This document shows, one piece after another, positions 1,160-49,098 of a stretch of DNA of 64,000 nt. The translations under genes and the position numbers were made by a program. Below the pieces are notes generated by a model, which was not told the origin of the DNA, did no database searches, and worked only from the letters and a program-made list of their open reading frames with translations. Source of the DNA: Aquirufa sp. (GTDB lineage: Bacteria > Bacteroidota > Bacteroidia > Cytophagales > Spirosomataceae); contig NZ_JBIIBQ010000010.1 in NCBI RefSeq assembly GCF_044239315.1, positions 22,405-86,404 on the forward strand, in the 5' to 3' direction. Each line of letters opens with the position of its first letter. Positions within the stretch are counted from its first letter, which is position 1.

Positions 1160-3019
1160 ATGAAAAAAGTCCTTTTCCTAGGCCTCCTTTTTTGTGCCTC
1201 ATTCTCCCTTGTCTCTCAAGATTTACGTGTCGAACCATTGAATTGGTGGGTGGGAATGAAGAACCCGAATTTACAGTTATTGATTAAAGCCAAAGACTTA
1301 AAGGGTGGTGCAGTAACATCCACTAAAGCTGGTTTAACCGTTAAGAAAGTAACCAACGGCGACAGCCCCAACTATTTATTCGTTGATTTAGTAGTTGCAC
1401 CTAATGCGCAAGCTGGAACGTATCCTTTGGTCATTAAAAAGAATGGTGCAGTGATTCACACCATCAATTATTCTTTAGAAGCTCGTGCTAAGAATTCAGC
1501 TAATCGTTCTTCATATTCCACGAAAGATGTGATTTACTTAATTACACCTGATCGCTTTGCAAACGGTAATCCGGCAAATGATAAAGCAGCCGGAATGCGG
1601 GACATGTCATTGAATCGCGGTGCACTATATGATCGCCATGGAGGTGATTTAAAAGGAATTATCGATCATTTGGACTACATTAAAAATATGGGATTCACCG
1701 CTATCTGGAATATGCCGGTGTTAGAGAATGATCAAACCTTAGAAAGTTACCATGGATACGGGATTACGGATCATTATAAGATTGACCGTCGTTTTGGGAC
1801 AAATGAAGAATACCGTGAGTTAGGGAGAAAAATGGAGGCGAATGGGATGTATTTGATCAAGGATGTTGTTTTGAATCACTCTGGAAATGGCCACTGGTGG
1901 ATGGATGATAAGCCATTTACCGATTGGATTAATTATGGAGGTAAATTTGTTTCCACTACACATCGCCGTGAAACAGTTCAAGATCCGCACGTGTCTAAGT
2001 ACGATGCAAAATTACAGTCTGAAGGCTGGTTCGTGCCAGCGATGCCAGATTTGAATCAGAAGAATCCATTTATGCAGCAGTACATTATTCAAAATACGAT
2101 TTGGTGGATTGAATATGCACATTTAGGCGGTATTCGAATCGATACATATCCCTACTCTACGAAGGAGTTTGCGACAATGTGGTCAGACGCAGTTCTAGAT
2201 GAATACCCAAATCTGAACTTAGTAGGAGAGGAATGGTCGTCTAATCCGATCATCACATCCTATTGGCAACGTGGAAAAGTAAATCGCGATGGCTATAAAT
2301 CATCGCTTCCAGCCTTAATGGATTTTCCGTTACAAAACGCGATTTCAGAGGCGATGAATGAAAATGATAAGGACTGGGGTAAAGGGTTGAACAAAATCTA
2401 CAGCGTTATCTCAAGTGATTTAGTATATGCGAATCCAGATAATTTAGTCGTGTTTATGGATAACCATGATATGTCGCGTGTTTTTACACAGATGAAACAT
2501 GATCAATCCTTATTGAAGATGGCCATGACCTATATTTTCACCACGCGCGGAATCCCACAGGTGTTTTATGGCACAGAAATTTTAATGGCTAATCCGAAGT
2601 CGTCTGAGCACGGCGAAATTCGCGGGGACTTCCCGGGCGGCTGGGCAGACGATGCGAAAAATGCATTTACAGGTGCGAACATGACAGCAGATGAGAAAGC
2701 GACTCAAGAGTTCTTCAAAAAGATTTTGACTTGGAGAAAAGGATCAGAGGCGATTCACAAGGGTAAATTGTTGCATTTTGGCCCGGAGAATGCTGGTGAA
2801 GGTAATGGCATTTATGTCTATTTCCGTTACACGGATAAGGCCAAAGTAATGGTGGTTCTAAATAAAAACGCAGAGTCTCGTAACCTTGATTTGAGTCATT
2901 ACGAAGAGATTCTTCCAGCTGGTGCGAAGGCGCACAATGTGATGGAATCGACCGATGTTCTTTTCGGGAAAACTTTAAATGTCCCAGCAAAATCAGCTCA
3001 AATTTTTGAAATCCGATGA
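1160..3019 (+). CDS. Exported GH13 alpha-amylase-family enzyme (cyclomaltodextrinase/neopullulanase-like)
   Basis: ORF 1112..3019, with the start moved to ATG 1160, which gives signal peptide MKKVLFLGLLFCASFSLVSQ. GH13 conserved regions are DVVLNHSG (I), GGIRIDTYPY (II), LVGEEWS (III) and VFMDNHDMSR (IV). Confidence 0.85.
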   Translation: MKKVLFLGLLFCASFSLVSQDLRVEPLNWWVGMKNPNLQLLIKAKDLKGGAVTSTKAGLTVKKVTNGDSPNYLFVDLVVAPNAQAGTYPLVIKKNGAVIHTINYSLEARAKNSANRSSYSTKDVIYLITPDRFANGNPANDKAAGMRDMSLNRGALYDRHGGDLKGIIDHLDYIKNMGFTAIWNMPVLENDQTLESYHGYGITDHYKIDRRFGTNEEYRELGRKMEANGMYLIKDVVLNHSGNGHWWMDDKPFTDWINYGGKFVSTTHRRETVQDPHVSKYDAKLQSEGWFVPAMPDLNQKNPFMQQYIIQNTIWWIEYAHLGGIRIDTYPYSTKEFATMWSDAVLDEYPNLNLVGEEWSSNPIITSYWQRGKVNRDGYKSSLPALMDFPLQNAISEAMNENDKDWGKGLNKIYSVISSDLVYANPDNLVVFMDNHDMSRVFTQMKHDQSLLKMAMTYIFTTRGIPQVFYGTEILMANPKSSEHGEIRGDFPGGWADDAKNAFTGANMTADEKATQEFFKKILTWRKGSEAIHKGKLLHFGPENAGEGNGIYVYFRYTDKAKVMVVLNKNAESRNLDLSHYEEILPAGAKAHNVMESTDVLFGKTLNVPAKSAQIFEIR

Positions 3020-5769
3020 GGTATCTATTTTTCTTACTTTTATCATTTTCTACTTACGCCCAAGTTTCAACTGTTGAAATTTTCCCAACTGGAGATAAAG
3101 AGATTACCTTGATTTTTGATTTGAAGCTCGCGAAAGATTCGCGAGCTTCAGGTCTTTTAGGGAAAACAAACGATGTTTTTTTATGGTCAGGTGCAGGGGA
3201 TTTAGCGACGGGGGATGCATTTAAATACCAGCCCGCAGGTCAAACTAATTTTAGTGTCCCCTTTGAAAAAGGACGGATGACCTCCTTAGGCAATGACAAA
3301 TGGTCGATTAAACTTACCCCACGTACCTACTTTAATGTACCAGCTGCAAATCCGATTGTTAAATTAGGATTACTATTAAAAAGTGGGGATGGTAAAGCGC
3401 AAACGGAAGATTTTATTTTTCCGCTCTTTACAGGTTCGTATTCTTTGAAATGGTTATCCCCTACGGAGCCCTTTACTCTAGCGGATGCGGGGACATCTGT
3501 TTCCATCAGGGCTAAGTTTTCGGCCTCCTCATCGATTAGTTTAAAATCTGCAGGAACAGTGCTAGCCACCGCCTCAGCCTCCGATTCCATCAATTATACG
3601 TATGCATTAGGAACAGAAAAGGGCAAATTACATACGCTGATTTTAGAGGGAATAGCTGGGTCTTCGACAATAAAAGATTCCGTGCGTATTTTAACTAAGC
3701 CAACGGTTGTTACAGAAGCCTTGCCTGCAGGAATTAAAGATGGTATAAATTATGTTGGGAATCGAGTGATCCTCTGTTTTTATGCTCCATCTACCTCTTT
3801 CGTTTATGCGATAGGCGAGTTTTCTAATTGGTCTGCCTTACCCGGCTACTTAATGAAGCGTACTGCCGATGGCTTGCGTTATTGGATTGATTTAGGAGTT
3901 CAAGTGCCTGGCAAAGAGGTGGCCTATCAGTATTGGGTGGACGGCAATTTAGCGGTAGCGGACCCATTAACTGAAAAGATTTTGGACCCTAACAATGATA
4001 AATTCATCACATCTACCACCTACCCTGGCCTTAAAAGTTATCCAGTAGGGGCCAAGGGGATTGTGTCGGTTTTTGAGCCGGGATCCACACCATACGTTTG
4101 GAAATCGACTAATTTTACGCGTCCATCTCCTTCTAATTTACATGTTTACGAATTATTAGTTCGTGATTTCGTAGCTGATCGCCGTTATAAAACGGTGGCT
4201 GATTCTATCGGTTATTTGAAGAAGTTAGGGATTAATGCCTTGGAATTAATGCCGGTGGCAGAGTTTTCAGGAAATGATTCTTGGGGATATAATCCCATCT
4301 TTTATACGGCGCCAGATAAGGCTTATGGGACAAAGAATGACTTGAAATACTTGATTGATAAATGCCATGAAAATGGGATTGCGGTCATTATGGATATCGT
4401 TTTGAACCAGGCAGATTTTGAGAATCCTTATGTAAAGATGTACTGGGATGGGGCTAAACCTACGGCATCGAGTCCTTTCTTCAATCCTACTGCGACGCAT
4501 CCCTTTAGTGTCTTCTTTGATTTTAATCATGAGAGCCTACATACGCAATGGCTGGTTGATCTGGTAACTAAGTTTTGGATAGAGGAATATAAGATAGACG
4601 GGTATCGTTTTGATTTGTCCAAAGGTTTCACACAAACGCCATCAGGTAGCAATGTAGGTCAATGGGGCCAATATGATGGATCACGTGTGCGCAATTGGAA
4701 ACGAATTTATGATAAAATTCGTAGCTATGATGCGTCCGCATATGTCATATTAGAGCATTTTGCCGCAAATAATGAAGAGAATGAATTAGGAAATTATGGC
4801 ATGCTTTTGTGGGGCAATAGCAAGTTTGACATGACGCGTGTAGTTCAAGGTTATACACAGGATTTAAGCCAAATATCTTACAAGACAAGAGGTTTTACGA
4901 ACCCTAGCGTCATGAGTTACATCGAATCGCATGACGAGGAGCGATTGATGGTGGAAATAGCTTCTGGGGCTAAAAAGACATTTACAGCCCAAGAAAGAAT
5001 AGAGCGAATGAAAATGGCAGCAGCCACTTTTTTCACCATTCCAGGGCCTAAACTGATATGGCAATTTGGCGAGTTGGGTTATGATGTGTCAATCAATGAG
5101 AATGGTCGAACTGGGGTAAAGCCCTTGAAGTGGAACTATGCTCAGGATTCTGAGCGTGCAAAATTATTAAAAGTATATCAACAGTTGGGAGCCTTAAAAA
5201 CGTCGAAACCAATTTTTACAACGACTGATTTTACCGTAGGTTCGCTTTCTGTAGTGAAGCGAAATTTATTAACAAGAGGATCAGAACACTTGTTGGTCAT
5301 CGCTAACCCGGATATCAATCCGCAAGTTATCTCTGCTAGCTTTCCTAAAACAGGTACATGGTACGATTATTTTAGTGGAAAATCGTTTGAAGTAAATGAT
5401 GCGGAGGCAAAGATGAGTTTATTGCCAGGAGAGTTTCATTTACTGACTAATGTGGCATGGAATACAACAAATCTGGGTTTAGTACCTTGGTCCACTCCCG
5501 ATTTTAATATCCTGGGCGTGGAGCAGGAATCTCAAAGTCTGAAGCTTTATCCAAACCCTGCTCGTGATTTAGTAAAACTAGACTGGGATTCCGCAGCAGC
5601 AGGTGAAACAATACTCAAATTGATGGATTCGATGGGTCGTGAGGTATTTCAGAAAAATTTACCTCAAACCAAGGGATTAAATTCAACGACTATTTCAGTA
5701 GAGCATATGTCCAAAGGGAATTATTTCATTCAAATAAATAAACAGCGTGCTAAACTATTTATCCAGTAA
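3016..5769 (+). CDS. GH13 alpha-glucan hydrolase with CBM48/E-set-like module and T9SS C-terminal sorting domain (secreted amylase/pullulanase-type enzyme)
   Basis: The start ATG overlaps the upstream stop (ATGA at 3016-3019). Signal peptide is MRYLFFLLLSFSTYAQ. An E-set-like segment reads VILCFYAPSTSFVYAIGEFSNW...YQYWVDG. GH13 regions are MDIVLNQAD, DGYRFDLSKG, VILEHF and YIESHDEER. The C-terminus is a Por-type tail. Confidence 0.85.
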   Translation: MRYLFFLLLSFSTYAQVSTVEIFPTGDKEITLIFDLKLAKDSRASGLLGKTNDVFLWSGAGDLATGDAFKYQPAGQTNFSVPFEKGRMTSLGNDKWSIKLTPRTYFNVPAANPIVKLGLLLKSGDGKAQTEDFIFPLFTGSYSLKWLSPTEPFTLADAGTSVSIRAKFSASSSISLKSAGTVLATASASDSINYTYALGTEKGKLHTLILEGIAGSSTIKDSVRILTKPTVVTEALPAGIKDGINYVGNRVILCFYAPSTSFVYAIGEFSNWSALPGYLMKRTADGLRYWIDLGVQVPGKEVAYQYWVDGNLAVADPLTEKILDPNNDKFITSTTYPGLKSYPVGAKGIVSVFEPGSTPYVWKSTNFTRPSPSNLHVYELLVRDFVADRRYKTVADSIGYLKKLGINALELMPVAEFSGNDSWGYNPIFYTAPDKAYGTKNDLKYLIDKCHENGIAVIMDIVLNQADFENPYVKMYWDGAKPTASSPFFNPTATHPFSVFFDFNHESLHTQWLVDLVTKFWIEEYKIDGYRFDLSKGFTQTPSGSNVGQWGQYDGSRVRNWKRIYDKIRSYDASAYVILEHFAANNEENELGNYGMLLWGNSKFDMTRVVQGYTQDLSQISYKTRGFTNPSVMSYIESHDEERLMVEIASGAKKTFTAQERIERMKMAAATFFTIPGPKLIWQFGELGYDVSINENGRTGVKPLKWNYAQDSERAKLLKVYQQLGALKTSKPIFTTTDFTVGSLSVVKRNLLTRGSEHLLVIANPDINPQVISASFPKTGTWYDYFSGKSFEVNDAEAKMSLLPGEFHLLTNVAWNTTNLGLVPWSTPDFNILGVEQESQSLKLYPNPARDLVKLDWDSAAAGETILKLMDSMGREVFQKNLPQTKGLNSTTISVEHMSKGNYFIQINKQRAKLFIQ
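5539..5766 (+). other. T9SS type-A C-terminal sorting domain of the GH13 enzyme
   Basis: The last ~76 aa read LKLYPNPARDLVKLDW...MSKGNYFIQINKQRAKLFIQ. These carry the YPNP..D and G.Y...I motifs typical of Por_Secre_tail domains. Confidence 0.7.
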
Positions 5770-12164: not shown

Positions 12165-15100
12165 TTATTGCTTACTAATTTTTAGAGTCTTGTTAACATG
12201 TGATCCCGAAACCTGAATAACATAGGTGCCCGAATCCATTTTAGATAAATCATAAGTGATGGTTCTCGAATTATCGAGATCGCGCGACTCATCTAAGATT
12301 GTTTTTTCCAATGAATAAATCAATACTCGAACCGATGGATCAGAACCTGGAACATAAATGGATACCTTACCTGAAGTTGGATTCGGGTATGCTTGTGCTT
12401 GTTCAGAGATAAAGATCTCTTGGTCGAGCCTGCCTTGGCATCCTAAATCAGTAGATACGCTGATTTTATTCAATCCAGTCGAAAGAACTTTTGAATATGT
12501 AGCCCCAGTTACTTTTTCTGTAACCCCGTTAACTGAAATAGAATAGGATTCAGAACCTGATAAATTCAATACTAAGGTATTTGAACTCGGATTGAATACA
12601 CTATTGGTTTTCAGCGCCGCAGGCTCTGTAATAATCACATCAAAACATTGTTCGTAGCCTTCTTTTCCTAATACTTGAATACAAACTGAATAGGTATCTT
12701 TTGCTAAACCAGTGATGTTTAAGGCTGCCGTTTCTGTCGTATTGTAAGTAAATTGTTTTGAGTAGCCAGAAGAGACTCCTACCGCTTTAATTAAGTAGTT
12801 GTAGTTTTTGTTTGCGAAGGCTATTTGGATAGATCCATTATTTGAACCTACGCAGGTAGCAGATCCCATCCCTATCGTATAATTCTTCGCAGGTAGATTA
12901 AAGATTTCGCAACCATTCGCATCGATGATGGCCCCAGCAGTAGTATTATTACATTTGTCTGCGTTATCCTTAATTCCATCCCCATCTGTATCAGCTAGCT
13001 CGTATTTCACTACTAAAGCAGATGAATTAGCGATACACCCGAACGGACTGACTACGTTCACGGTATAACTTCCATCGTTTTGTGGAATGTATTCAGCAGT
13101 TGTAGCCCCTGTAATGACAGTACCATCCTTAGACCATTGGTATTTCGCTCCTGTCACCACTGGTACCTTCAAAGTATAGGTTTTCGTGTCCGTCAGATTG
13201 AATACGAAAGTAGATCCCGTAGTCGTAATGGTTACGTCAGGTGAAGGATTCATGGTAACGGTAGTTGATTCAGAAGTCGAGATATCACCTATCGGATAGG
13301 TAACGGTAACGTTATAATTACCGCTAGTATTAACCGTGATAGATTGAGTCTTCGCCCCCGTTGACCACGTATAAGACAGTCCACCATCAGAGGCAGTTAA
13401 CACCACACTTCCACCTGGACAGAATACTTTTTTGCCTGTATTTACAATCTCAACGATCGGCTTTGCTAAAGTAGGGGTGTAATAGTAGGCTTTACTATCT
13501 CCTAATTCTCCGAATACGTTTAAGCCCCATGACCAGAGAGAGCCATCTGTTTTCAAGGCTAAAGAATGGTTGCCCCCTGTTGAAATTTCCTTCCAATCGG
13601 TTTCAGTGCCTATCCTAGTAGGTGTATTTTTATCAATAATACTACCATCGCCAAGCTGACCATAGTAATTGCTTCCCCAAGCCCACATACTACCATCTGT
13701 TTTTAGAAGCATTTTATGATAGGATAAACCAGAAAGTGATAATTTATTGATGCTATTTATGTTAATTAGGGTAGGAATATTTTTATTTGTGTTTGTTCCA
13801 TCTCCTAGTTGACCTCTTAAATTATAGCCCCATCCCCATAAAGTTCCATCTTTTTTAAGCGCATAGGATTGATCGCTTCCTGTTTCAATAGACACCCAAT
13901 CGTTAGCATTACCTATTTGAATCGGAATAGTAGTATTTGTAGTGTTTCCACTTCCTAATTGGCCATTAAAATTGTACCCCCATGCCCAAATAGTGCCATT
14001 GGATTTTAATCCAATGGCATGACCCCAACCAGCAGAGATCGAAACCCAATCAGTATTATTTCCAATTTGAATCGGTATGCTAGAATTTGCGGTATTTCCA
14101 TTTCCTAATTGACCATAAAAATTTGCTCCCCAAGCCCAAAGCGTCCCATTTTTCTTGATGCCGTATGAAGTTTGTTCAGCGGCATGCACATATGCCCAGT
14201 CCGATGTAGTTCCTATTTGTATGTGAATGTTTTTAGAAGTAGTAGTACCATCTCCTAATTGTCCAACATTATTTGCTCCCCATGCCCATAAAGTTCCATC
14301 CTTTTTTAAAGCAATTGAATGATTATAACCTAAAGACAAAGTTTGCCAATTAGCACTTGTGCCTATTTGAACGGGTACATCTAAATTTCTATCTGATCCA
14401 TTTCCTAGCTGACCTTCGCTATTATTGCCCCATGCCCACAATGTTCCATCTTTTTTAATCGCTGCAGATCGGTAGGTAGTTGTATATATTTTATCCCAGG
14501 TCAAGTCAGTGCCTACTTGTCTAACATTGGTACTATAAGAAAAATTACCTTTTCCTAGTTGTCCTGAAAGATTATAACCCCATGAAAAGACATTATTTTG
14601 CTTATCAAGAGCCAAAACATGGTTAGAACCAACGGCGCCAGATCTCCAATTAGTGGCATTTCCAATTTGTGTCAAACCACTATAGTTTCCTGAATTACCC
14701 TGACCTAGCTGACCATAAGCATTGAATCCAATTGCCCATAGCGTTCCATTCGATTTGATAGCTAAACTTACAGATCCTGAAGGTGGAATATATAAATTAG
14801 ACCAATTGGTTTCGGCACCTACTTGAGTAGGATTTAAAACAGTACTCGATGTTGTACTACCAAATCTATTATAAGAATTATTTCCCCAGCCCCAAAGTGT
14901 TCCATCCGTTCTTAAAGCGAAAACATAATTATTTCCACTATCGATTATTGCCCAGTCTGTTGAATTACCTATTTGAGTTGGAGTATTTTTATTGATAGTT
15001 GATCCATCTCCTAATTGGCTTTGGTTATTTTGACCCCAGGCAAAAAGTTGTCCATTGGATTTGATTGCATAAGAACTATTTCCACCGGCTGATATGGAAA

Positions 15101-18100
15101 CCCAATCGGTATCTGTACCAATTTGTGTAGGAGATAGTAAGGTCGAAGAATTTCCATTACCTAATTGTCCGTTTAAATTATACCCCCATGCCCAAATGGT
15201 ACCATTTGTTTTAAGCGCAACACTGTGGTTAAATCCGACAGATATGGATTCCCAATCAGTAGCGACTCCAATTCGAATTGGGACCAAGGATTCAGCTATA
15301 GTCGCATCTCCAAGACCTAAGTATCCATTGGATCCATTTTGTCCCCAACCCCATAAGCTGCCATCTTTTTTAAGAGCAATGGTGAAACTACTCGTTGTAG
15401 CCACCATTTTCCAATCATTCGCTGTTCCCACTTGAACGGCAATACTTTGATTTATTTTATTGCCTATTCCTAGTTGTCCTAAGCTATTATTTCCCCAGGC
15501 CCATAAGGTACCATTTGGTTTAATTAAGAAACTGCTATTAGATCCGGCGAAAACTTTTGCAGGCGTGAGCGTATCTGATAAGGCATAGGTAATCGTTTGC
15601 GAAACAGATGAAGAAACGCAGCCAAACGTATTTGTGACATTTACCGAATAAACGCCATTCTTTTTAGGCACGTAATTATTTATGATAGCACCAGGAATGG
15701 CAACCCCATTGTTCAGCCATTGGTAAGAAACACCTGTTGCAGAAGGCACCGTTAGCTTATAGGTTTTTAAATCCTCTAAACGATTAACTGTCATCGAACC
15801 AGTGGTGCTTATAGTCGTGCTAGGTAAGACTGGAACAATATAAGGATCAGAAGTGCTGACATCACCAATAGGGTAGGTAACTGTGACACTATAAGAACCA
15901 CCCGTAGTAACGGTGATGGATCGTGTAGTGGCACCAGTAGACCAGGTATAAGAAAGTCCACCCCCTGAAGCTGTTAATATACCACCAGTGCTACCAGGAC
16001 AGAATGTTTTTCTTTCCGAGGAAGTGATATCGACGATAGGTTTTGCCAAAGTAGGGGAGTAGAAAATTGATTTACCATCCCCAAGTTGTGCATAGTATTT
16101 ATCACCCCAAGCCCAAAGACTTCCATCTGATTTGATTGCAAGCGAATGATCTCTCCCCGCAGCTATATCTGTCCAGTCTGAATCTGTTCCTAATCTTTGA
16201 GGTATATTTTTATTAGTTGTAGAACCATCACCTAGTTGTCCATTTGCATTATTTCCCCATAGCCACAGGCTACCATCTGACTTTAAGGTCATCAAATGAT
16301 TTGAAAGTGTTGAAGCCGGCCATTTAATCGAATTATTTAGGGCTAGTAATTGAGTGGGCGCATTTTTGTTAGTATTTGTCCCGTCACCAAGTCCACCCTC
16401 AACATTATTTCCCCAAAGCCAAACAGTTCCATTTTTTTTGACAGCCAGTGAGCTATTATATCCAGCTTGAATATAGTCCCAGTCAGTAGCAGTTCCCACT
16501 TGAGTAGGCGTACTCATATTTGTTGTGTTTCCTAATCCTAGTTGACTAAAATTATTTAATCCCCATGCCCATAGGGTTCCATTCGATTTTAATGCTAAAA
16601 CATGGTTTGAACCTGCAGATATGGCAGTCCAATCAGAAGCGGATCCTATTTGAATTGGAATTGATGAAGTAATCGAGAATGTACCAGAGGCAATATTTCC
16701 CCAATACCAGATAGTTCCATTTGTTTTCACTCCAACAGAATGAGTTAGTGCGGTTGAAACCGTTTTCCAATCGGTAGCAGTACCTATTTGTACAGGAGTA
16801 GTCCGTTGGATAATTGTACCATCACCTAGTTGTCCGGAAGAATTAAATCCCCAACCCCATAGACTTCCATTGGCTTTTATGGCAAGAGTCTGGTATCCAC
16901 CTAAGGATACATATTTCCAATCTTTTCCTGTTCCCACTTGTTTGGGAATATCAACATTGGTTGCAGATAAACCATCTCCTAATTGCCCATATCTATTCCT
17001 TCCCCACATCCAAAGGCTTCCATCTTTTTTGATTGCGGCTGAATGAACAAGTCCAGCAAATACTTTTTCCCAGCTAAAATCATTACCGACTTGTCTAGGA
17101 ACGGCAATGTAAGTATTCCCTTTTCCTAGTTGTCCACTAAAATTATCACCCCAAGAATATAGGTTGTTTAGATTGTCTAGTGCTAAAGAATAGGTAGTTC
17201 CTAAAGCTAAAGAATTGGAAGTTCCTAGAGCTAAAGATCTCCAAGAATTACTGGTTCCTATTTGCGTGAATGAAGTAGAGTTATTTGTATTTCCTTGTCC
17301 AAGTTGACCTGAAAAGTTGTTTCCAGAAGACCAAATGGTACCATTTGCCTTCAGGGCAAATCCATGATTAATTGATAAGCCAATGTTAGTCCAATTTAAA
17401 TCTGTACCTATTTGTGTAGGTTCTGAAATATTTTCTAAGGTCCCATTCCCTAATTGGCCATCGGAATTTAATCCCCAAGCCCATAAACTTCCATTTGTTT
17501 TAAGTGCAAGAACACTATAATTACTGCCTTTAATCATCCCCCAGTCAGTTGAATTACCAATTAAAGTAGGGATGTTTTTTGAAACAGTAGTTCCATCCCC
17601 TAGCTGCCTCGATGAATTTTGCCCCCAAGCGTATAGACTTCCATTATTTTTAATGGCATAGGAACTATATCCTCCTGCTGAAATAGAAGCCCAATCTGTA
17701 TCTGTACCAATTTGTGTAGGACTTAATAAGGTTGTGGAATTTCCATTACCAAGTTGTCCATCAAAATTATATCCCCAAGACCAAATAGTTCCATTTGTTT
17801 TGAGCGCAATGATATGGTTAAATCCCACAGAAATAGATTCCCAATCAGTTGCCACCCCAATTCGTATCGGAACTAATGATTCTGCTATAGTAGCATCTCC
17901 TAATCCTAAATATCCAGAGCTTCCATTAAAACCCCAAGCCCATAAACTACCATCTTTTTTGATAGCGATAGTGTATAAATTTGAAGAAGCTACCATTTTC
18001 CAATCACTCGCTGTTCCCACTTGAACCGCAATGCTTTGGTTGATTTTATTTCCTATTCCTAGTTGGCCATTGATATTGCTACCCCATGCCCATAAGGTCC

Positions 18101-21100
18101 CATTTGGTTTAATTATGAAACTGCTATTTCCTCCAGCGAAAACAGCAGAAGGCGTGAGCGTTTCCGATAAGGCATAGGTAACGGTTTGTGAAACAGATGA
18201 AGAAACGCAGCCAAAAGTATTCGTGATATTTACCGAATAAGTGCCATTCTTTTTAGGGACGTAATTATTCGAGATAGCTCCAGGAATGGCAACCCCATTG
18301 TTAAGCCATTGGTAAGAAACACCTGTTGCAGAAGGCACGGTTAGCTTATAGGTTTTTAGATCTTCTAAACGATTAACCTTCATCGAACCAGTGGTACTTA
18401 GCGTCGTGCTAGGTATAGCTGGAATAACTACGGTTTCAGTAGAAGTGCTAACATCACCAATTGGGTAGGTGACTGTGACACTGTAAGATCCACTCGTCGT
18501 AATGGTGATGGATCGTGTAGTGGCACCAGTGGACCAGGTATAAGATAGTCCTCCTTCGGTAGCGGTAAGCACTATGGTGCCACTTGTACAGTAGGTTGAT
18601 TTACTTGATTGGGTAATTTCTACGATTGGTTTTGCAAGAGTGGGAGTGTAGAATTGTGAATTAGAATTCCCTAATTGGCCATAGATATTACTCCCCCAAG
18701 ACCATAAACTACCATCGGATTTTGTCGCAAGTGTATGGCTGGCTCCTACCGCAAATTCTTTCCAGTCAGTATCTATACTAATTTTAGTGGGTGTAGGATT
18801 TGGATTATTTGAAGCCGTTCCATTACCTAATTGTCCAGCAATATTAGCACCCCATGACCAAAGAGTACCATCTGATTTTTGTATTAAGTTATGGTCTGCT
18901 GCTGATGAATTTGAAAACTTAGTTACATTGTTTAAACTAATTTGAGTAGGTGATGTTTTGTTTATTGTCGTACCATCAGCTAATTCACCATCAATATTGG
19001 ATCCCCACGTCCAGATTGTCCCATCTCTTTTTTGAGCAATAGAATATTCACCACCTGCTTGGATAGCAATCCAATCAGCACTAGTACCTATTTGAATGGG
19101 CGTATTTATTTGTGTTAAAGTCCCATTTCCCAATTGGCCTAATTGATTTCTTCCCCAAGCCCATAGTGTTCCATTGGATTTTAATCCTAAAGTGTGAGTA
19201 TTCCCAGCAGATATTGAAACCCAATCCGAATTATTGCCTATTTGGATCGGAATATTTGAACTTGTGTTATTCCCATTTCCTAATTGTCCATTCGCATTAT
19301 TTCCCCAAGCCCATAAAGTACCATTATTTTTTAAAGCGAAGGAACTTGAACCTCCTGCAGCAGTCAATTTCCAGTCAGTCGATATTCCTAATTGGATAGG
19401 GCTATTTTTTTGAATAGTTGTCCCATCCCCTAATTGGCCACTAGAATTTAATCCCCAAGCCCAAAGTGTACCATCTGTTTTTAAGGCTAATCCATGATAA
19501 AAGCCAAGTGAAACCGATTTCCAATTAGTAGAATTAGTAATTAAAGTTGGATTCTCTTTATTTATGACCGTACCATCACCTAACTGACCAAATTGATTTC
19601 TTCCCCAATTCCAAAGAGTGCCATCTTTTTTTATGGCCCCTGAAAATGAAATACTAGCATAAGCTTTATCCCAGACTAAATCAGTGCCCACTTGTTTAAT
19701 ATTAGTGTTAAAATATGTCTTTTTTCCTAATTGAGAATAGCCATTATATCCCCAAGAATAAAGTTTATTTTGATTATCTAATGCTAATGTATGCTCTGAT
19801 CCCATTGCGACAGATGACCAATTCGTACTATTACCTACCTGGGTAAACAAACTGTTATCTGTGGCATTTCCTAATCCTAATTGACCAAAGGTATTCAATC
19901 CTGCCGACCACAAGGTTCCATTAGCCTTTAATGCAAAGCTGAAAGATCCTTGTGCTGACAAAGAAATATCTATCCAATCTGTATCAGTTCCAATTTGTAT
20001 AGGATTGACATATGTGGTAGAGTTACCTAATTGACCATATTGACTATATCCCCAACCCCATAAAGTTCCATTTGCTTTTAACGCCATGGCATATGCATAT
20101 CCACTCGCTATTTTTATCCAATCGTTCGAGGAGCCTACTCTAGTCGGTGAATTTCTGTTATTTCCACTAGTTCCATCACCTATCTCTCCCGAGAAGTTAT
20201 TACCCCAAGCAAATAAATTTCCATTGTTTTTTATTGCATATGAGGTACTATTACTACTTGCTATTTCGGACCAATCTGAATCTGATCCAATTTGAACTGG
20301 AGAAATTCTCGTAGTGCTTGTCCCATCGCCTAATTGTCCATTACCATTAAATCCCCATGCCCATATGGTACCATTAGACTTAAGTGCAATACTGTGGTTC
20401 CCACCAACAGAAATTGATTTCCAATCATTTGATGTTCCAATTCGTATGGGGACTAATGATTCAGTTGTATTGGCATCGGCGATTCCTAATAAACCATTGA
20501 CTCCATTTTGCCCCCATCCCCAAAGGGTACCATCTTTCTTTAGACCAATAGTAAATGTACTTGCTGTTGCAACCATTAACCAATCTGTTGATGTACCAAC
20601 TTGTGTGGCATAAGTTTGATTAATCTTGTTGCCAATTCCTAATTGTCCTCGATCGTTTCTACCCCAAGCCCACAGAGTTCCGTCTGCTTTAATTTGAAAA
20701 CTAGAATTTGCACTGGCAAAAATCTTAGGTTTAGGGGTAGTAGTTGCGGCAAATAATTGGGTAGGGGTTGATATATATCCAAATTCTCCAATGCCTAAGT
20801 CGCCATCCAAGTTATTTCCCCATGACCATAGGCTGCCATCTGATTTAATTGCAAAAGTACTGGATGAGGGTCCGACATAAATTTTATCCCAATTGGTTTC
20901 TGTTCCTACTCTGGTCCCAGTAAAATTATTGGTAACAGTCCCGTTCCCTAAATTTCCAAAATCATTTTTTCCCCAAGTATAAAGTGAACCATCTGTTTTG
21001 ATAGCACCAGAATGGTTATATGATGATGCAACAGTCCTTATATTGTTTAAACTTGAAATTTGAGTAGGCAACAAAATTTGCCTTGTTGTCGATGGGTCAA

Positions 21101-22925
21101 AACCTAGATTTCCTTGGGAATTTGTCCCCCATGACAATAGATTCCCACTCGAATTTAAGGCAATTGTTCCCTCATAGCTAGTTGAGATTGCTGTCCAGTT
21201 TGACAGATTCCCTATTCTTTGAGGAGTACTGTAATTTGTGTAGGAGTTCAAACCTAATTGGCCGGCCCAATTTTCTCCCCAGCTCCATAATGTTCCATCT
21301 GTTTTTAAACCAATTGTGTTAATAAAATTGGCTCCAATGCTTTTCCAATTTAAATCAGTTCCAATTTGGATTGGTGAAAGAATATTATCAGTTGTAGTAT
21401 TAGAAATTGAATTACCCCAATTGGCTCCCCAGGCCCATAAACTGCCATTGGTTTTAATTGCATAAACATTACTAGCAATAGCAAAAATTTTATCCCAGTC
21501 GGTAGCAATTCCAGTTTGAGCGATGGTCAACCTTGAAATAGTGTTTCCCGTACCTAAATAGCCATTTGTATTATCTCCCCAAGTCCAGAGCGTACCATCT
21601 GTTTTTATGGCAGCAAAGCTACCCCAGGTAGCTACTATCGATTTCCAATTTGTTCCAGTGCCGATTTGAATAGGTGTGTTAGTGCTTGCCTTTGTGTTAT
21701 TCCCAAAAATCCCGGAACTATTATTGCCCCAGGCCCACAAGGTTCCATCTAACTTTATTCCGAAAGTGGTCCCATTACTGTTAGGGCATATCTCTTTCCA
21801 TCCAATAGTACTTTCAACTCTTACTGGTGTTTTTTTGAAAGAATCAATTCCCAAACCAAGGAGCCCACTTTGATTTGATCCCCAAATCCAAATGCTTTTG
21901 TCTGATTTTATACCAATAGAGGAATTAAAACCAAGATAAATATTTTCCCAGTTAAGTTCATTGCCGATTTGAGTCGGTACCGTTGTAATTTCCCCCGGTA
22001 GTCTCCCACTTACACCTTGATTGTTGATACCCCATGACCAAATGGAACCATTAGATTTAATTGCCATTGAGCTTAGATACCCTGCTGAAATTCTTTTCCA
22101 ATTATTGTCAGTTCCAATTCTTAGAGGCGTAAGTTGGGAAGATATGTTATACGTACCTATTCCAATTATTGTTATGTTAATACCTCCCCAAGTCCATAAG
22201 CTTCCATCTTGTTTGATTGCTAAAACATGGTTGCTACCAGCCTCTACTATTTTCCAATTTGTATCTGAATTAACTTGAATGGGTACATTAGAATTGTTTG
22301 TAGAATTATTTCCAAAAGTACCACCATTAAAACCCCAAGCCCATAGAGTTCCATTTTGTTTGATAGCGATAGTAGAATTATTTGATAATGTTACGCTAGA
22401 CCAATTAGATTCAGTTCCGAGTTTAGTAGGAACACCTTTATTCACAGTCGTACCATCTCCTAATTCTCCGTTTCCATTGCTGCCCCAATTCCAAAGTGTC
22501 CCGTCTGTTTTTAACCCAACAACAATATTTCCATTAGTGGTGATAAATTTCCAATTATTGTCAGTGCCTACTTGCCCAGGCACTAATCTTTGTATCTCTG
22601 ATGAATTATTATTCCCGAATTTATTTGAATTGTTTAGTCCCCAAGCCCATAAGGTTCCATCTCTTTTAATCCCAAATGATGTATTATTACTTGTTGCTAC
22701 AGAAATCCATTGTGAGTTAGGCACTATATTTACCGGAATATTCCGATTTGTTGTAGTTCCATCTCCTAATTGTCCACTCGAATTATTTCCCCATGCCCAA
22801 AGGCTACCATCTTCTTTAATAAACAAGGTGGTATTACTCTCTGAGGAAGCAATTTGGCCGTTGGAAAGGTAGCTCAGAAATAATATTATGTTTATTAAAA
22901 GGAATAAAGCTTTTTTCATAGTCAA
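12165..22925 (-). CDS. Giant (3,586 aa) secreted RCC1-like repeat protein with Ig-like modules and T9SS C-terminal sorting domain
   Basis: A single uninterrupted ORF. Signal peptide is MTMKKALFLLINIILFLSYLSNGQ. I counted 56 blades of the type DG[ST]LW.WG.N..GQLG.G, as 14 W-x-W-G motifs in each of four blocks. Three Ig-like pairs follow blocks 2-4 (LSYTWSTGATTRSITVTT.GSYSVTVTYPIGD; GVSYQWLNNGVAIPGA). There is a DTDGDGIKDNADKC calcium-binding-type motif, and the C-terminus reads AYPNPTSGKVSIYVPG...GTYVIQVSGSHVNKTLKISKQ. Confidence 0.85.
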   Translation of the reverse strand: MTMKKALFLLINIILFLSYLSNGQIASSESNTTLFIKEDGSLWAWGNNSSGQLGDGTTTNRNIPVNIVPNSQWISVATSNNTSFGIKRDGTLWAWGLNNSNKFGNNNSSEIQRLVPGQVGTDNNWKFITTNGNIVVGLKTDGTLWNWGSNGNGELGDGTTVNKGVPTKLGTESNWSSVTLSNNSTIAIKQNGTLWAWGFNGGTFGNNSTNNSNVPIQVNSDTNWKIVEAGSNHVLAIKQDGSLWTWGGINITIIGIGTYNISSQLTPLRIGTDNNWKRISAGYLSSMAIKSNGSIWSWGINNQGVSGRLPGEITTVPTQIGNELNWENIYLGFNSSIGIKSDKSIWIWGSNQSGLLGLGIDSFKKTPVRVESTIGWKEICPNSNGTTFGIKLDGTLWAWGNNSSGIFGNNTKASTNTPIQIGTGTNWKSIVATWGSFAAIKTDGTLWTWGDNTNGYLGTGNTISRLTIAQTGIATDWDKIFAIASNVYAIKTNGSLWAWGANWGNSISNTTTDNILSPIQIGTDLNWKSIGANFINTIGLKTDGTLWSWGENWAGQLGLNSYTNYSTPQRIGNLSNWTAISTSYEGTIALNSSGNLLSWGTNSQGNLGFDPSTTRQILLPTQISSLNNIRTVASSYNHSGAIKTDGSLYTWGKNDFGNLGNGTVTNNFTGTRVGTETNWDKIYVGPSSSTFAIKSDGSLWSWGNNLDGDLGIGEFGYISTPTQLFAATTTPKPKIFASANSSFQIKADGTLWAWGRNDRGQLGIGNKINQTYATQVGTSTDWLMVATASTFTIGLKKDGTLWGWGQNGVNGLLGIADANTTESLVPIRIGTSNDWKSISVGGNHSIALKSNGTIWAWGFNGNGQLGDGTSTTRISPVQIGSDSDWSEIASSNSTSYAIKNNGNLFAWGNNFSGEIGDGTSGNNRNSPTRVGSSNDWIKIASGYAYAMALKANGTLWGWGYSQYGQLGNSTTYVNPIQIGTDTDWIDISLSAQGSFSFALKANGTLWSAGLNTFGQLGLGNATDNSLFTQVGNSTNWSSVAMGSEHTLALDNQNKLYSWGYNGYSQLGKKTYFNTNIKQVGTDLVWDKAYASISFSGAIKKDGTLWNWGRNQFGQLGDGTVINKENPTLITNSTNWKSVSLGFYHGLALKTDGTLWAWGLNSSGQLGDGTTIQKNSPIQLGISTDWKLTAAGGSSSFALKNNGTLWAWGNNANGQLGNGNNTSSNIPIQIGNNSDWVSISAGNTHTLGLKSNGTLWAWGRNQLGQLGNGTLTQINTPIQIGTSADWIAIQAGGEYSIAQKRDGTIWTWGSNIDGELADGTTINKTSPTQISLNNVTKFSNSSAADHNLIQKSDGTLWSWGANIAGQLGNGTASNNPNPTPTKISIDTDWKEFAVGASHTLATKSDGSLWSWGSNIYGQLGNSNSQFYTPTLAKPIVEITQSSKSTYCTSGTIVLTATEGGLSYTWSTGATTRSITITTSGSYSVTVTYPIGDVSTSTETVVIPAIPSTTLSTTGSMKVNRLEDLKTYKLTVPSATGVSYQWLNNGVAIPGAISNNYVPKKNGTYSVNITNTFGCVSSSVSQTVTYALSETLTPSAVFAGGNSSFIIKPNGTLWAWGSNINGQLGIGNKINQSIAVQVGTASDWKMVASSNLYTIAIKKDGSLWAWGFNGSSGYLGLGDATIAESLVPIRIGVATDWESISVGFNHIIALKTNGTIWSWGYNFDGQLGNGNSTTLLSPTQIGTDTDWASISAGGYSSYAIKNNGSLYAWGQNSSRQLGDGTTVSKNIPTLIGNSTDWGMIKGSNYSVLALKTNGSLWAWGLNSDGQLGNGTLENISEPTQIGTDLNWTNIGLSINHGFALKANGTIWSSGNNFSGQLGQGNTNNSTSFTQIGTSNSWRSLALGTSNSLALGTTYSLALDNLNNLYSWGDNFSGQLGKGNTYIAVPRQVGNDFSWEKVFAGLVHSAAIKKDGSLWMWGRNRYGQLGDGLSATNVDIPKQVGTGKDWKYVSLGGYQTLAIKANGSLWGWGFNSSGQLGDGTIIQRTTPVQIGTATDWKTVSTALTHSVGVKTNGTIWYWGNIASGTFSITSSIPIQIGSASDWTAISAGSNHVLALKSNGTLWAWGLNNFSQLGLGNTTNMSTPTQVGTATDWDYIQAGYNSSLAVKKNGTVWLWGNNVEGGLGDGTNTNKNAPTQLLALNNSIKWPASTLSNHLMTLKSDGSLWLWGNNANGQLGDGSTTNKNIPQRLGTDSDWTDIAAGRDHSLAIKSDGSLWAWGDKYYAQLGDGKSIFYSPTLAKPIVDITSSERKTFCPGSTGGILTASGGGLSYTWSTGATTRSITVTTGGSYSVTVTYPIGDVSTSDPYIVPVLPSTTISTTGSMTVNRLEDLKTYKLTVPSATGVSYQWLNNGVAIPGAIINNYVPKKNGVYSVNVTNTFGCVSSSVSQTITYALSDTLTPAKVFAGSNSSFLIKPNGTLWAWGNNSLGQLGIGNKINQSIAVQVGTANDWKMVATTSSFTIALKKDGSLWGWGQNGSNGYLGLGDATIAESLVPIRIGVATDWESISVGFNHSVALKTNGTIWAWGYNLNGQLGNGNSSTLLSPTQIGTDTDWVSISAGGNSSYAIKSNGQLFAWGQNNQSQLGDGSTINKNTPTQIGNSTDWAIIDSGNNYVFALRTDGTLWGWGNNSYNRFGSTTSSTVLNPTQVGAETNWSNLYIPPSGSVSLAIKSNGTLWAIGFNAYGQLGQGNSGNYSGLTQIGNATNWRSGAVGSNHVLALDKQNNVFSWGYNLSGQLGKGNFSYSTNVRQVGTDLTWDKIYTTTYRSAAIKKDGTLWAWGNNSEGQLGNGSDRNLDVPVQIGTSANWQTLSLGYNHSIALKKDGTLWAWGANNVGQLGDGTTTSKNIHIQIGTTSDWAYVHAAEQTSYGIKKNGTLWAWGANFYGQLGNGNTANSSIPIQIGNNTDWVSISAGWGHAIGLKSNGTIWAWGYNFNGQLGSGNTTNTTIPIQIGNANDWVSIETGSDQSYALKKDGTLWGWGYNLRGQLGDGTNTNKNIPTLININSINKLSLSGLSYHKMLLKTDGSMWAWGSNYYGQLGDGSIIDKNTPTRIGTETDWKEISTGGNHSLALKTDGSLWSWGLNVFGELGDSKAYYYTPTLAKPIVEIVNTGKKVFCPGGSVVLTASDGGLSYTWSTGAKTQSITVNTSGNYNVTVTYPIGDISTSESTTVTMNPSPDVTITTTGSTFVFNLTDTKTYTLKVPVVTGAKYQWSKDGTVITGATTAEYIPQNDGSYTVNVVSPFGCIANSSALVVKYELADTDGDGIKDNADKCNNTTAGAIIDANGCEIFNLPAKNYTIGMGSATCVGSNNGSIQIAFANKNYNYLIKAVGVSSGYSKQFTYNTTETAALNITGLAKDTYSVCIQVLGKEGYEQCFDVIITEPAALKTNSVFNPSSNTLVLNLSGSESYSISVNGVTEKVTGATYSKVLSTGLNKISVSTDLGCQGRLDQEIFISEQAQAYPNPTSGKVSIYVPGSDPSVRVLIYSLEKTILDESRDLDNSRTITYDLSKMDSGTYVIQVSGSHVNKTLKISKQ
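12168..12393 (-). other. T9SS type-A C-terminal sorting domain of the giant protein
   Basis: The last ~75 aa read AYPNPTSGKVSIYVPGSDPSVRVLIYSLEKTILDESRDLDNSRTITYDLSKMDSGTYVIQVSGSHVNKTLKISKQ. Confidence 0.7.
12991..15565 (-). repeat. Intragenic tandem unit C (14 RCC1 blades + Ig-like pair), ~2.58 kb; boundaries approximate
   Basis: The unit begins VFAGSNSSFLIKPNGTLWAWGNNSLGQLGIGNKINQSIAVQVG and ends ...SALVVKYELA. It is colinear with units A and B. Confidence 0.8.
15566..18150 (-). repeat. Intragenic tandem unit B (14 RCC1 blades + Ig-like pair), ~2.59 kb; boundaries approximate
   Basis: The unit begins VFAGGNSSFIIKPNGTLWAWGSNINGQLGIGNKINQSIAVQVG and ends ...SVSQTITYALSDTLTPAK. It is offset 2,589 nt from the next copy. 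Confidence 0.8.
18151..20740 (-). repeat. Intragenic tandem unit A (14 RCC1 blades + Ig-like pair), ~2.59 kb; boundaries approximate
   Basis: The unit begins PKPKIFASANSSFQIKADGTLWAWGRNDRGQLGIGNKINQTYATQVG and ends ...SVSQTVTYALSETLTPSA. Confidence 0.8.
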
Positions 22926-23063: not shown

Positions 23064-23076
23064 GATTTTAATGGAG

Positions 23077-42344: not shown

Positions 42345-42414
42345 GTTGAATTAATTTCAAGGAATGATTCCTTTCTTTTTAAAATCTGCTCATTTGATTC
42401 CTTCTCGGAAAACG

Positions 42415-44408: not shown

Positions 44409-44431
44409 AGCCTCTTCAATGAGGCTTTTTT
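44409..44431 (+). terminator. Rho-independent terminator after hemD
   Basis: AGCCTC ttcaat GAGGCT is followed by TTTTT and preceded by an A-run. Confidence 0.75.
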
Positions 44432-44463
44432 ATTATTTTAGCCTACCTATTTTCATCCAACGA

Positions 44464-45456
44464 ATGAAACGCAGCTTGAGTATCTTAATAAAGTCATGTC
44501 ATTCCCTGCTTCTTGTGGGTTCTTTATTCGTTTGTTTTTCGCCCCTATTTGCCCAGCAAAGTCCGCAATTCAGCATTTTTTCTGCCAATTCTACCTTGAT
44601 TAATCCGGCTTTTTCGGGTTGGAAATCGTCTAATTATGTGGCAGTACAATTCCGAGATCAATGGTCTGGATATACGACAACAACGGATGGTGCAGGGAAT
44701 TTAGGAACTACCTGGGTGTCAAGCTCGTTTGGAGTAACGCCTAATGTAGGATTAGGAGTTATTTTTTATTCAGACAGAACGCCATCTGGAGTATCTCAAC
44801 AGTCTTTTAAAGTACTAGGAGCCTATCATTTAAGGAAAGGTGAAGGTACTTGGTCCTTTGGATTTTCTGCCGGAACTCAAACTAAAACATTTGATGGTCG
44901 CTCCTTTCGTGTAAGAGACCCCAATGATCCCGTTACATCGTTATTTTCGGGTTCTACTGCCAGTCAAGCTATTCTTGATTTTGGGGCAGGAATTCTCTAT
45001 TCAAAATCGAATTGGCAAGTAGGCATTTCTGTTGATCATATAAATTCACCTAATTTTTCTTTTAAAGGGTATTCTGTTTTAATGCCTTTGGAACAAGTCT
45101 ATTCCTTAAATGGAAGCGCTGAGATTCCATTGAACGATTACTTTGATGTGTCTCCCTATGCCCTATTGAGAGCTTATTCTGGAAATTTAGTTCCTGAAGC
45201 AGGTGCAAGAATTTATTATAATAAACTTTTTTATGTAGGAACTGGTTATAGACATGGAGATGCTGCCATGGGCTTATTGGGAGTGTCTATTTTAGACAAT
45301 AAATTAGATATCGGTTATTCTTTGGATTTAGCTGTAGCTAATTCGTTGGCTAAGAGGCCTTTATCTCATGAAATTGCCATCAGGTACCAGATTCCTGAAC
45401 GAATGAAGAAGAGTAAAGTGGTACCTATTCGAACTCCAAGGTTTAGAATCTTGTAG
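44464..45456 (+). CDS. porP: PorP/SprF-family T9SS outer-membrane protein
   Basis: Start moved to ATG 44464, because the 44419 extension would include the hemD terminator. After the signal peptide comes QQSPQFSIFSANSTLINPAFSG, the family N-terminal motif. It lies directly upstream of gldK. Confidence 0.8.
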   Translation: MKRSLSILIKSCHSLLLVGSLFVCFSPLFAQQSPQFSIFSANSTLINPAFSGWKSSNYVAVQFRDQWSGYTTTTDGAGNLGTTWVSSSFGVTPNVGLGVIFYSDRTPSGVSQQSFKVLGAYHLRKGEGTWSFGFSAGTQTKTFDGRSFRVRDPNDPVTSLFSGSTASQAILDFGAGILYSKSNWQVGISVDHINSPNFSFKGYSVLMPLEQVYSLNGSAEIPLNDYFDVSPYALLRAYSGNLVPEAGARIYYNKLFYVGTGYRHGDAAMGLLGVSILDNKLDIGYSLDLAVANSLAKRPLSHEIAIRYQIPERMKKSKVVPIRTPRFRIL

Positions 45457-45519
45457 TTTATGGATAAATTCATGGTGCTAAGTTTTTTAATTAATACTGA
45501 TATATTCATTAAAAACATT

Positions 45520-45527
45520 TAAATTTG
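45520..45527 (+). promoter_or_regulatory. Candidate -7 promoter box (TAnnTTTG) for the gldKLMN operon
   Basis: TAAATTTG lies 80 nt upstream of ATG 45607. No clear -33 element was seen. Confidence 0.35.
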
Positions 45528-45606
45528 AAAGATTGTGTGAGTTGAGAATGATGAAGACAATTTATTTACATTATTTTCGTTCACCTAATTACTATAATAA
45601 TCGAAT

Positions 45607-46737: not shown

Positions 46738-46764
46738 ACTAAAAAGTATAAATTATAAAATCAA

Positions 46765-47502: not shown

Positions 47503-47504
47503 TT

Positions 47505-49094: not shown

Positions 49095-49098
49095 TCGA

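Follow-up and report, generated by a model that had tools for sequence, protein, structure and literature searches.

A giant protein of 56 RCC1-like blades in Aquirufa carries a putative portable tail-lipoprotein cassette of type IX secretion cargo

We analysed a window of 64,000 nucleotides from Aquirufa sp. (Bacteroidota; assembly GCF_044239315.1, contig NZ_JBIIBQ010000010.1), in which one reverse-strand gene encodes a giant protein made mostly of RCC1-like repeats (hereafter, the giant) and is followed by a co-oriented gene for a small lipoprotein. An earlier note, made from the sequence alone, had read the giant as type IX secretion system (T9SS) cargo, which remains its best-supported reading. 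The note had the architecture right in nearly all detail, but it overlooked the lipoprotein gene and the portability of the C-terminal region of the giant (the tail). New here are the pairing of this tail with the lipoprotein, which recurs with unrelated cargo, and the mosaic N-terminal half of the giant.

The giant is encoded by one intact open reading frame (ORF) of 3,586 codons counted from a TTG, without interruption, as described before. Because the starts of orthologues match MKKALFLL..., the true start is most likely the ATG two codons past the TTG. The N-terminal segment MKKALFLLINIILFLSYLSNGQ has, by eye, the basic and hydrophobic shape expected of a Sec signal peptide and is kept in the orthologues, in agreement with the signal peptide proposed earlier. 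It is followed by 28 contiguous blades (blocks 1 and 2), a pair of immunoglobulin (Ig)-like modules, block 3, a second Ig pair, block 4, a third Ig pair and the tail. Profile hidden Markov models (HMMs) bear out the RCC1 assignment, with matches to RCC1 (PF00415; 44 stretches, 1308 bits), RCC1_2 (PF13540; 43 stretches, 1010 bits) and the whole-propeller model WD40_RLD (PF25390; 15 stretches, 1943 bits), all at E = 0. A regular expression for the DG[ST]LWxWG strand found 55 blades at a spacing of ~50 residues, plus one double-length gap in block 3 that corresponds to a degenerate blade. An HMM made from these blades recovered 56, distributed as 14+14+14+14, which is the count and arrangement given in the earlier note. 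Blocks 2, 3 and 4, together with their respective Ig pairs, are colinear copies (57-59% identity in protein, 65-68% in DNA); block 1 is ~40% identical to the other blocks. A sequence search of the PDB matched UVR8, HERC1/2 and RPGR at E ~1e-36 to 1e-42 and RCC1 at ~1e-23. In an AlphaFold2 model of block 3 and its Ig pair, for which the alignment comprised just four sequences (mean pLDDT 62.7), the block forms 14 blades, each four-stranded, and Foldseek superposes a closed seven-blade propeller of this model on UVR8 (TM 0.84, target-normalised; rmsd 2.6 Å; 365 columns). Given the modelled four-stranded blades, the UVR8 superposition and the sequence matches, the giant is predicted to consist of eight seven-bladed RCC1-type propellers, two per 14-blade block.

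The Ig-like pairs behind blocks 2-4 (~160 aa each, mutual identity 54-56%) contain two cysteines apiece, as the earlier note had seen. The Pfam scan of these pairs gave only PKD and I-set matches, all below threshold; a link to Ig_7 (PF19081) is indirect, via homologues carrying Ig_7. The cysteines of the giant are nearly confined to the Ig pairs and the tail, the latter having six. The tail (~275 C-terminal residues) comprises a thrombospondin type 3 (TSP3)-like loop, two beta-sandwiches with four of the six conserved tail cysteines and a type A T9SS C-terminal sorting domain (CTD). In the loop, where a calcium-binding type of motif had been noticed, the pattern DxDxDGxxDxxDxC...GC is visible (DTDGDG...C in the giant); the TSP_3 profile (PF02412) scores 15.2 against a cut-off of 25 bits here and exceeds the cut-off in the homologous tails of L086, L110, L116, L085 and P0021. 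The sorting domain suggested earlier passes both curated cut-offs narrowly, with PF18962 at 27.5 versus 27 bits (residues 3513-3586; 31.2 bits when only the segment of Ig pair plus tail is scanned) and TIGR04183 at 24.8 versus 23 bits. CTDs of homologous tails score 26-48 bits, one of them (L085) slightly under the cut-off. In a model of the last Ig pair and tail (mean pLDDT 83.8), which is better supported than that of block 3, five beta-sandwich beads are visible along with the TSP3 loop. The porP-gldKLMN cluster that had been noted nearby lies 21.5 kb from the giant, and PorP-family, GldK, GldL, GldM and GldN are all above their HMM cut-offs. On sequence evidence, the giant is very probably a T9SS-secreted extracellular protein (Table 1).

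Asn, Ser, Thr and Gly together make up ~45% of the giant. It has 130 N-x-S/T sequons, mostly supplied by the NG[ST]LW blade motif, and a single match to the Bacteroidota-type O-glycosylation motif D[ST][AILVMT]. Cytophaga hutchinsonii is reported to N-glycosylate T9SS cargo (PMC10202324).

Table 1. Features of the giant gene, its lipoprotein partner gene and their context (window coordinates)
Feature	Coordinates	Strand	Remarks
Giant ORF including stop codon	12165..22925	(-)	probable ATG at 22919, giving a 3,584-aa protein
Sec-type signal peptide, N-terminal, MKKALFLLINIILFLSYLSNGQ	22854..22919	(-)	residues 3-24 of the TTG ORF; read from sequence
Block 1, 14 RCC1-like blades, two predicted propellers	20727..22853	(-)	residues 25-733; most divergent; no Ig pair behind it
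Block 2, 14 RCC1-like blades, two predicted propellers	18645..20726	(-)	residues 734-1427; within the divergent-allele half
Ig-like module pair 1	18147..18644	(-)	residues 1428-1593; Cys1446, Cys1573
Block 3, 14 RCC1-like blades	16056..18146	(-)	residues 1594-2290; AlphaFold2 model, UVR8 superposition
Ig-like module pair 2	15558..16055	(-)	residues 2291-2456; Cys2309, Cys2436
Block 4, 14 RCC1-like blades	13476..15557	(-)	residues 2457-3150
Ig-like module pair 3	12999..13475	(-)	residues 3151-3309; modelled as two beta-sandwiches, pLDDT mostly 76-94
Thrombospondin type 3-like Ca-binding loop, DTDGDGIKDNADKC...NGCE	12891..12998	(-)	residues 3310-3345; opens the conserved tail
Two conserved beta-sandwich domains of the tail	12402..12890	(-)	residues 3346-3508; first opens with SprB-repeat-like CVGSNNGSI; four conserved Cys
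Type A T9SS C-terminal sorting domain (CTD)	12168..12401	(-)	residues 3509-3586
Cognate lipoprotein gene, 244 aa	11426..12160	(-)	4 nt past the stop of the giant; lipobox Cys19, Pro-rich tether, two FN3-like domains; large unnamed family
tRNA-Arg(CCG) and hairpin terminator	23076-23148 and 23063-23036	(-)	directly upstream of the giant gene
porP/sprF-family gene, gldK, gldL, gldM, gldN	44419..50037	(+)	T9SS core for export; genomic context, outside the locus

The lipobox of the downstream lipoprotein reads ...GLAAC. Scans of the protein against Pfam and NCBIfam gave nothing significant, and PorP_SprF was unmatched. Two cysteines are invariant in its family, that of the lipobox and a second one (Cys57 in the window protein) where the first FN3-like domain starts, and an acidic residue is found 5-8 positions past the lipobox Cys in 114/114 homologues with a recognisable lipobox. 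Bacteroidota lipoproteins carry acidic signals for surface export, and this residue is compatible with such a signal without proving one. Across the window protein and homologues P0067-P0186, the linker is Gly-rich in marine lineages and Pro-rich in freshwater ones. The family is large: a word index returned 309 matches, all unnamed, and a search of 1.84 billion cluster representatives gave 1,664 matches at E <= 1e-10, 403 of them at E <= 1e-30. Some of the matches are larger proteins with tandem arrays of the same FN3-like domain.

When the last Ig pair and tail were used as query, proteins were found that share only the tail with the giant. In Ulvibacterium marinum, this tail closes a protein of 903 aa whose N-terminus is unrelated, and a gene for a lipoprotein homologue follows within a few nt. 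Four further metagenomic or genomic contexts have the same arrangement, i.e. another payload with the same tail, followed within a few nt by a lipoprotein homologue. A lipoprotein homologue was present downstream at every tail-bearing genome locus examined, fewer than ten loci being available in this direction. A tail HMM, which scores 425 bits on the giant and has no other match within the window, was combined with tblastn on the genome loci and gave matches only at Aquirufa-like loci and in Ulvibacterium. For sampling in the reverse direction, 80 metagenomic loci were collected with an alignment of the lipoproteins alone and then scanned with the tail HMM. Forty-nine of these loci were informative, having >=400 nt upstream of the lipoprotein gene, and in 45 of the 49 the lipoprotein gene is preceded, at a distance of -3 to +38 nt, by the end of a tail-bearing ORF (126-439 bits). 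Clustered by lipoprotein identity, the 45 positive loci fall into 29 groups at 90% and 13 at 70%. In 11 shorter loci, the end of a tail is visible at the contig edge. The size of the cassette family was estimated via the lipoprotein, the pre-CTD part of the tail alone having given one match as a query in the word index.

Payloads carried on the tail are diverse. They include cadherin and Big_9 arrays, a CBM6-bearing GH5 cellulase, a DUF1501 protein, an S8 subtilase, TSP3 arrays (of which one has a weak metallopeptidase-like match and another a proprotein-convertase P-domain) and giants of >3,000 aa composed of NHL, FG-GAP, LVIVD and cadherin repeats. Among the lipoprotein-sampled loci, RCC1 blades are found on the cassette only at the Aquirufa-like locus. 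Lipoproteins that are >=70% identical go with unrelated cargo (L067, L078, L102, L110, L114, L116 and others); the cargo of these lipoproteins ranges from cadherin arrays, GH5 with CBM6 and TSP3 arrays to a >3,333-aa giant with DUF285, LVIVD and FG-GAP. Since closely related lipoproteins accompany unrelated payloads, this pattern suggests that each cargo has its own lipoprotein copy and that a genome may hold several cassettes. No conserved third gene was found behind the lipoprotein in the cassette loci. Judging from gene order and homology, tail and lipoprotein appear to be a portable cassette for varied cargo in many aquatic Bacteroidota. A literature search, of incomplete coverage, found no account of a pairing between such a cargo tail and an FN3-type lipoprotein.

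At two metagenomic loci (L052 1041-8105, L055 1-6339), the tail is found on short proteins of 461 and 350 aa, respectively. A large protein devoid of a CTD (1,651 aa in L052, 1,517 aa as called in L055) is encoded 4 nt upstream. In L052 this protein has a coiled-coil end that, by eye, resembles the intramolecular-chaperone C-terminus of tail fibres. In these two cases, the payload may be a polypeptide separate from the tail.

Among species-representative genomes, close relatives of the window are L002, a 'Cytophagaceae' metagenome-assembled genome (MAG; 85%), and L003, an Aquirufa sp. MAG (79%), which places the source among Aquirufa-like freshwater bacteria of the Cytophagales. Colinear orthologues of the giant were found in L002 (3,580 aa, 56 blades), in L001 (GCA_964616575.1), where the gene is called as two solely through a run of N, and in the metagenomic contig L057, where the locus edge truncates the orthologue to 3,331 aa with 52 blades. 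The two full-length orthologues, in L002 and L001, measure 3,580 and ~3,585 aa, respectively, with 55-56 blades. All three loci keep both the giant and the lipoprotein genes; in L002 the flank past the lipoprotein differs. The ratio of non-synonymous to synonymous divergence (dN/dS) relative to L057 and L002 is 0.12-0.21 in each propeller block and lower yet in the tail, where no non-synonymous change relative to L057 was found. Because dN/dS is low in every block and in the tail, the gene has been under purifying selection over its entire length. The number of propellers has remained constant despite saturated synonymous sites, dS relative to L002 being >1 in blocks 1-2.

Divergence along the giant is very uneven. 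Identity to L001 and L057 is 90-100% in blocks 3, 4 and the tail and 46-74% in blocks 1 and 2. Relative to L057, dS rises from 0.02 in the tail through 0.12 in block 4 and 0.23 in block 3 to 1.5 in block 2 and 1.8 in block 1, compared with 0.19-0.37 in the flanking housekeeping genes. The N-terminal half is thus an old divergent allele, apparently recombined onto a nearly identical C-terminal half. Positive selection as the source of the N-terminal divergence was ruled out, since dN/dS is ~0.2 throughout and dS is saturated. If the giant is held by its C-terminus, the divergent half is the end most distant from the cell.

The earlier note had regarded a concatenation of RCC1 propellers as unusual, which did not hold. 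Among the loci fetched with block 4 and the tail, ORFs with RCC1 blades occur in Bacteroidota, Verrucomicrobiota, Bacillota, Actinomycetota, Myxococcota, Nitrospirota and candidate phyla (CPR). Their blade numbers group at or near multiples of seven (7, 14, 21, 27), a few lying 1-2 blades away, and truncated ORFs have 36 and 53. The last two are from an Oscillospiraceae MAG (L050 2-15565; ORF of >=5,188 aa, 36 blades) and a Chthoniobacter MAG (L010 5039-22087; >=5,683 aa, 53 blades). Three of the four non-Aquirufa Bacteroidota loci tested combine an RCC1 array with a type A CTD. Chryseobacterium jejuense has three tandem RCC1 genes (L006 4668-17186; 21/14/22 blades), with the CTD in 2/2 scanned; Flavobacterium lotistagni has such an array; and in a Chitinophagales MAG a 2,821-aa protein has TIG and PKD_6 spacers. 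In the fourth, a Bacteroidales MAG, the 2,440-aa RCC1-array protein showed no CTD on scan. In F. psychrophilum, the surface proteome contains THC0290_2385, an RCC1-repeat protein with TIGR04183 that disappears from it in gldD and gldG mutants and is present at the surface only with an intact gld/T9SS machinery (PMC5682007). These T9SS proteins resemble the giant in having RCC1-like propellers, a type A CTD and blade numbers near multiples of seven, but they have 14-27 blades against its 56, use fn3, TIG or PKD_6 spacers and lack its tail and lipoprotein. RCC1-only giant genes were described in Oscillospiraceae by West-Roberts et al. (bioRxiv 10.1101/2023.11.21.568195), and L050 is a locus of this kind; like the giant, their products are very long extracellular proteins consisting almost entirely of RCC1 repeats, but they come from a Gram-positive lineage with no T9SS and have neither the Ig-pair punctuation nor the tail-lipoprotein cassette. 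The giant, with 56 blades, is an upper-end member of an existing, uncharacterised class of multi-propeller RCC1 proteins. Within the incomplete coverage of our literature search, RCC1 in combination with T9SS, or Aquirufa with RCC1, was met in one proteomics table only, and no reported function was found for multi-propeller RCC1 proteins. The seven-bladed RCC1-type fold is shared with UVR8, HERC2, RPGR, RCC1 and BLIP-II, all of which are binding platforms for proteins or ligands. Four of these are single propellers with specific intracellular partners, and BLIP-II is a single secreted propeller that acts as a binder (PMC9218822). None of the ligand-binding residues of the eukaryotic RCC1-like domains or of BLIP-II could be transferred to the giant.

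The arrangement of cargo and partner has its closest counterpart in SprB-SprF and other type B cargo of F. johnsoniae, in which a cargo gene is followed by the gene of a dedicated outer-membrane partner, duplicated per cargo; known cognate partners are confined to type B cargo, and its C-terminal region is the proposed carrier of secretion and targeting signals (PMC12618676). Unlike in these pairs, the CTD of the giant is type A, its partner is a ~240-aa FN3-type lipoprotein rather than a PorP/SprF beta-barrel, and the conserved candidate for recognition consists of folded domains that precede the CTD. The comparison with SprB and RemA made in the earlier note is a loose one. Like the giant, both are huge repetitive surface proteins exported by the T9SS in gliding Bacteroidota, and the CTD of RemA is type A (PMC10202324); however, the giant is built from the RCC1 propeller fold. 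Its only SprB-repeat (PF13573) match is a 13-residue stretch at 14.1 versus a cut-off of 28 bits (E = 0.037), the NCBIfam scan gave the type A model and not the type B one (TIGR04131), and no sprF/porP gene adjoins it, the only porP-family gene of the window being that in the gldKLMN cluster. The grappling hook GhpA of Aureispira, a T9SS-related giant surface filament, was also considered. Its Ig neck is the top match to the model of Ig pair and tail (9flp_A, E = 3e-14), but the Foldseek TM is only 0.12-0.23, and the match was judged to reflect no more than a generic string of Ig domains.

In the established T9SS route, cargo is exported by Sec, its CTD is recognised, and it is translocated through SprA and handed over to PorV, after which PorU removes the CTD (PMC12618676, PMC10202324). 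Type A cargo is then either attached or released, and the basis of this choice is unknown (PMC10202324). For the giant, we infer the following course of export and CTD cleavage, of lipoprotein tethering and orientation, and of binding. The protein would reach the periplasm by Sec export, and the T9SS would read its CTD (PorV route) and move it across the outer membrane, whereupon the CTD would be cleaved off. The folded tail domains would remain docked on the cognate outer-membrane lipoprotein with its flexible tether, so that the C-terminus lies at the membrane and the eight propellers point outward on Ig spacers as a multivalent surface for a ligand. Specificity would reside in the distal half (blocks 1-2, four propellers), exchanged among strains as divergent alleles. 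As a whole, the view that the giant is a binding array displayed at the surface and held there by its cognate lipoprotein has, in our estimate, an even chance of being correct. Retention through the lipoprotein, taken by itself, is about evenly balanced at best, and a role as an adhesin or in ligand capture is plausible with somewhat less than an even chance. More tentatively, the tail and FN3-type lipoprotein might constitute a hitherto undescribed system, dedicated to its cargo, that retains or targets a subclass of type A substrates, a type A counterpart of SprF/PorP that is widespread in freshwater and marine Bacteroidota and keeps cargo on the surface. The 56-blade array, with its distal end exchanged as divergent alleles, would then be among its largest payloads.

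Several observations weigh against tethered display. Type A cargo can be released instead of attached (PMC10202324), the CTD of the giant exceeds its curated cut-offs by a narrow margin only, and confidence in the block-3 model is only moderate (mean pLDDT 62.7). Four of the 49 informative lipoprotein loci (L079, L087, L092, L099) have no upstream tail gene and are true orphans; any partners that they have are encoded elsewhere. The metagenomic sample is in part redundant and is biased to aquatic Bacteroidota. Gene adjacency is no proof of physical interaction, and the lipoprotein could face the periplasm. The ligand is not deducible, as the partners of RCC1-like propellers differ greatly between proteins.

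The main alternative to tethering is that the T9SS-secreted giant is released into the water after CTD cleavage and that the lipoprotein is a helper on the periplasmic or translocon side, such as a chaperone, targeting adaptor or quality-control factor. It would fit the significant subset of type A cargo that is freely released (PMC10202324), the GH5 cellulase and S8 protease of the cassette could act as soluble enzymes, and very large cargo might need a dedicated helper. We nevertheless consider it unlikely. A long flexible tether in combination with two FN3 domains typifies proteins that extend away from a membrane, and the string of Ig spacers and propellers looks stalk-like; moreover, the tail is kept as folded domains before the cleavable CTD, which would be needless for a transient signal, the CTD alone being enough for secretion (PMC12618676). 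The array could also serve mainly for protection, as a variable coat or decoy against, for instance, adsorbing phages or grazing protists, with N-terminal alleles held by frequency-dependent selection and not by a ligand for nutrition or adhesion. The pattern of divergence, with distal-half dS five- to ninefold over the genomic background and a nearly identical proximal half and tail, is typical of enemy-exposed surface structures, and the giant is a large cellular investment. A coat of this kind is hard to separate from, and compatible with, a binding function, but we rate it as distinctly unlikely: dN/dS of ~0.2 indicates no excess of amino-acid change, and the exactly conserved blade number suggests a structural or binding requirement.

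Two further readings are improbable to very different degrees. A gliding adhesin like SprB or RemA, moved along the surface by the gliding machinery and giving traction on certain substrata, would suit a giant, repetitive, surface-directed protein in a genus whose strains glide on soft agar (PMC12528234), with gld/T9SS motor genes in the same window and with RemA as a precedent for an adhesin with a type A CTD. The missing type B CTD, SprB repeat and sprF/porP-like neighbour described above argue against it, as do the hydrolases on the same cassette, which point to a general display device, and a static lipoprotein tether is not obviously coupled to a moving track. On balance, we hold this reading to be improbable. 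The length and repetitiveness of the ORF, and the two genes called in L001, might arouse suspicion of an assembly artefact or of a pseudogene in decay, but both possibilities were excluded and retain practically no probability. The internal repeats are <=68% identical in DNA, colinearity with the window holds in three independent assemblies (with 55-56 blades in the two that contain the whole gene), the split in L001 is a run of N, and purifying selection acts throughout.

Should tethered display be correct, the tail-lipoprotein pairing may show how some T9SS cargo stays on the cell surface. The two-gene cassette with its varied payloads offers a concrete hypothesis for the choice between release and retention of type A cargo, one that is open to genetics in culturable Aquirufa or in Flavobacteriaceae of marine origin. 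The cassette would also be a natural modular scaffold for surface display in aquatic Bacteroidota if the anchor is the lipoprotein. The giant itself is a well-defined bacterial case of a multi-propeller RCC1 protein, with eight predicted propellers, stable copy number and distal allelic variation, and its ligand would reveal what abundant freshwater bacteria attach to or capture.

The giant had also been called an accessory element. Its neighbourhood is core chromosomal, with ilv and leu genes, recN, priA and obg, and the gene is conserved in relatives, contrary to that description; in its favour, the gene stands beside a tRNA-Arg and its N-terminal half is a divergent allele. The tRNA-Arg(CCG) and the terminator part the giant gene from upstream transcription. 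Between the same tRNA and the giant gene, L002 (741-2650) carries a 1.7-kb insertion with two small reverse-strand genes encoding 164 aa and 284 aa, and the tRNA-adjacent site is therefore variable. The 164-aa protein looks, by eye, like a small outer-membrane beta-barrel. A sigma-70 promoter scan was uninformative, with fewer matches than shuffled sequence gave, and Bacteroidota promoters differ. A functional link of the giant to neighbouring genes (amylases, an amidase and a glycoside-hydrolase-like protein) was considered and found unsupported, and the flank past the lipoprotein gene is not conserved in L002.

Elsewhere in the window, an ORF for a 390-aa protein with no NCBIfam match (42364-43536, (+)) lies two genes upstream of porP-gldKLMN, and a gene for a BamG-family outer-membrane assembly protein is found at 36268-37680 (+). 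The window also encodes a second T9SS cargo, a 917-aa alpha-amylase-family protein (3016..5769, (+)) with a type A CTD of 43 bits, which has neither the tail module nor a lipoprotein gene behind it and is preceded by a cyclomaltodextrinase-like gene (1112-3019, (+)).

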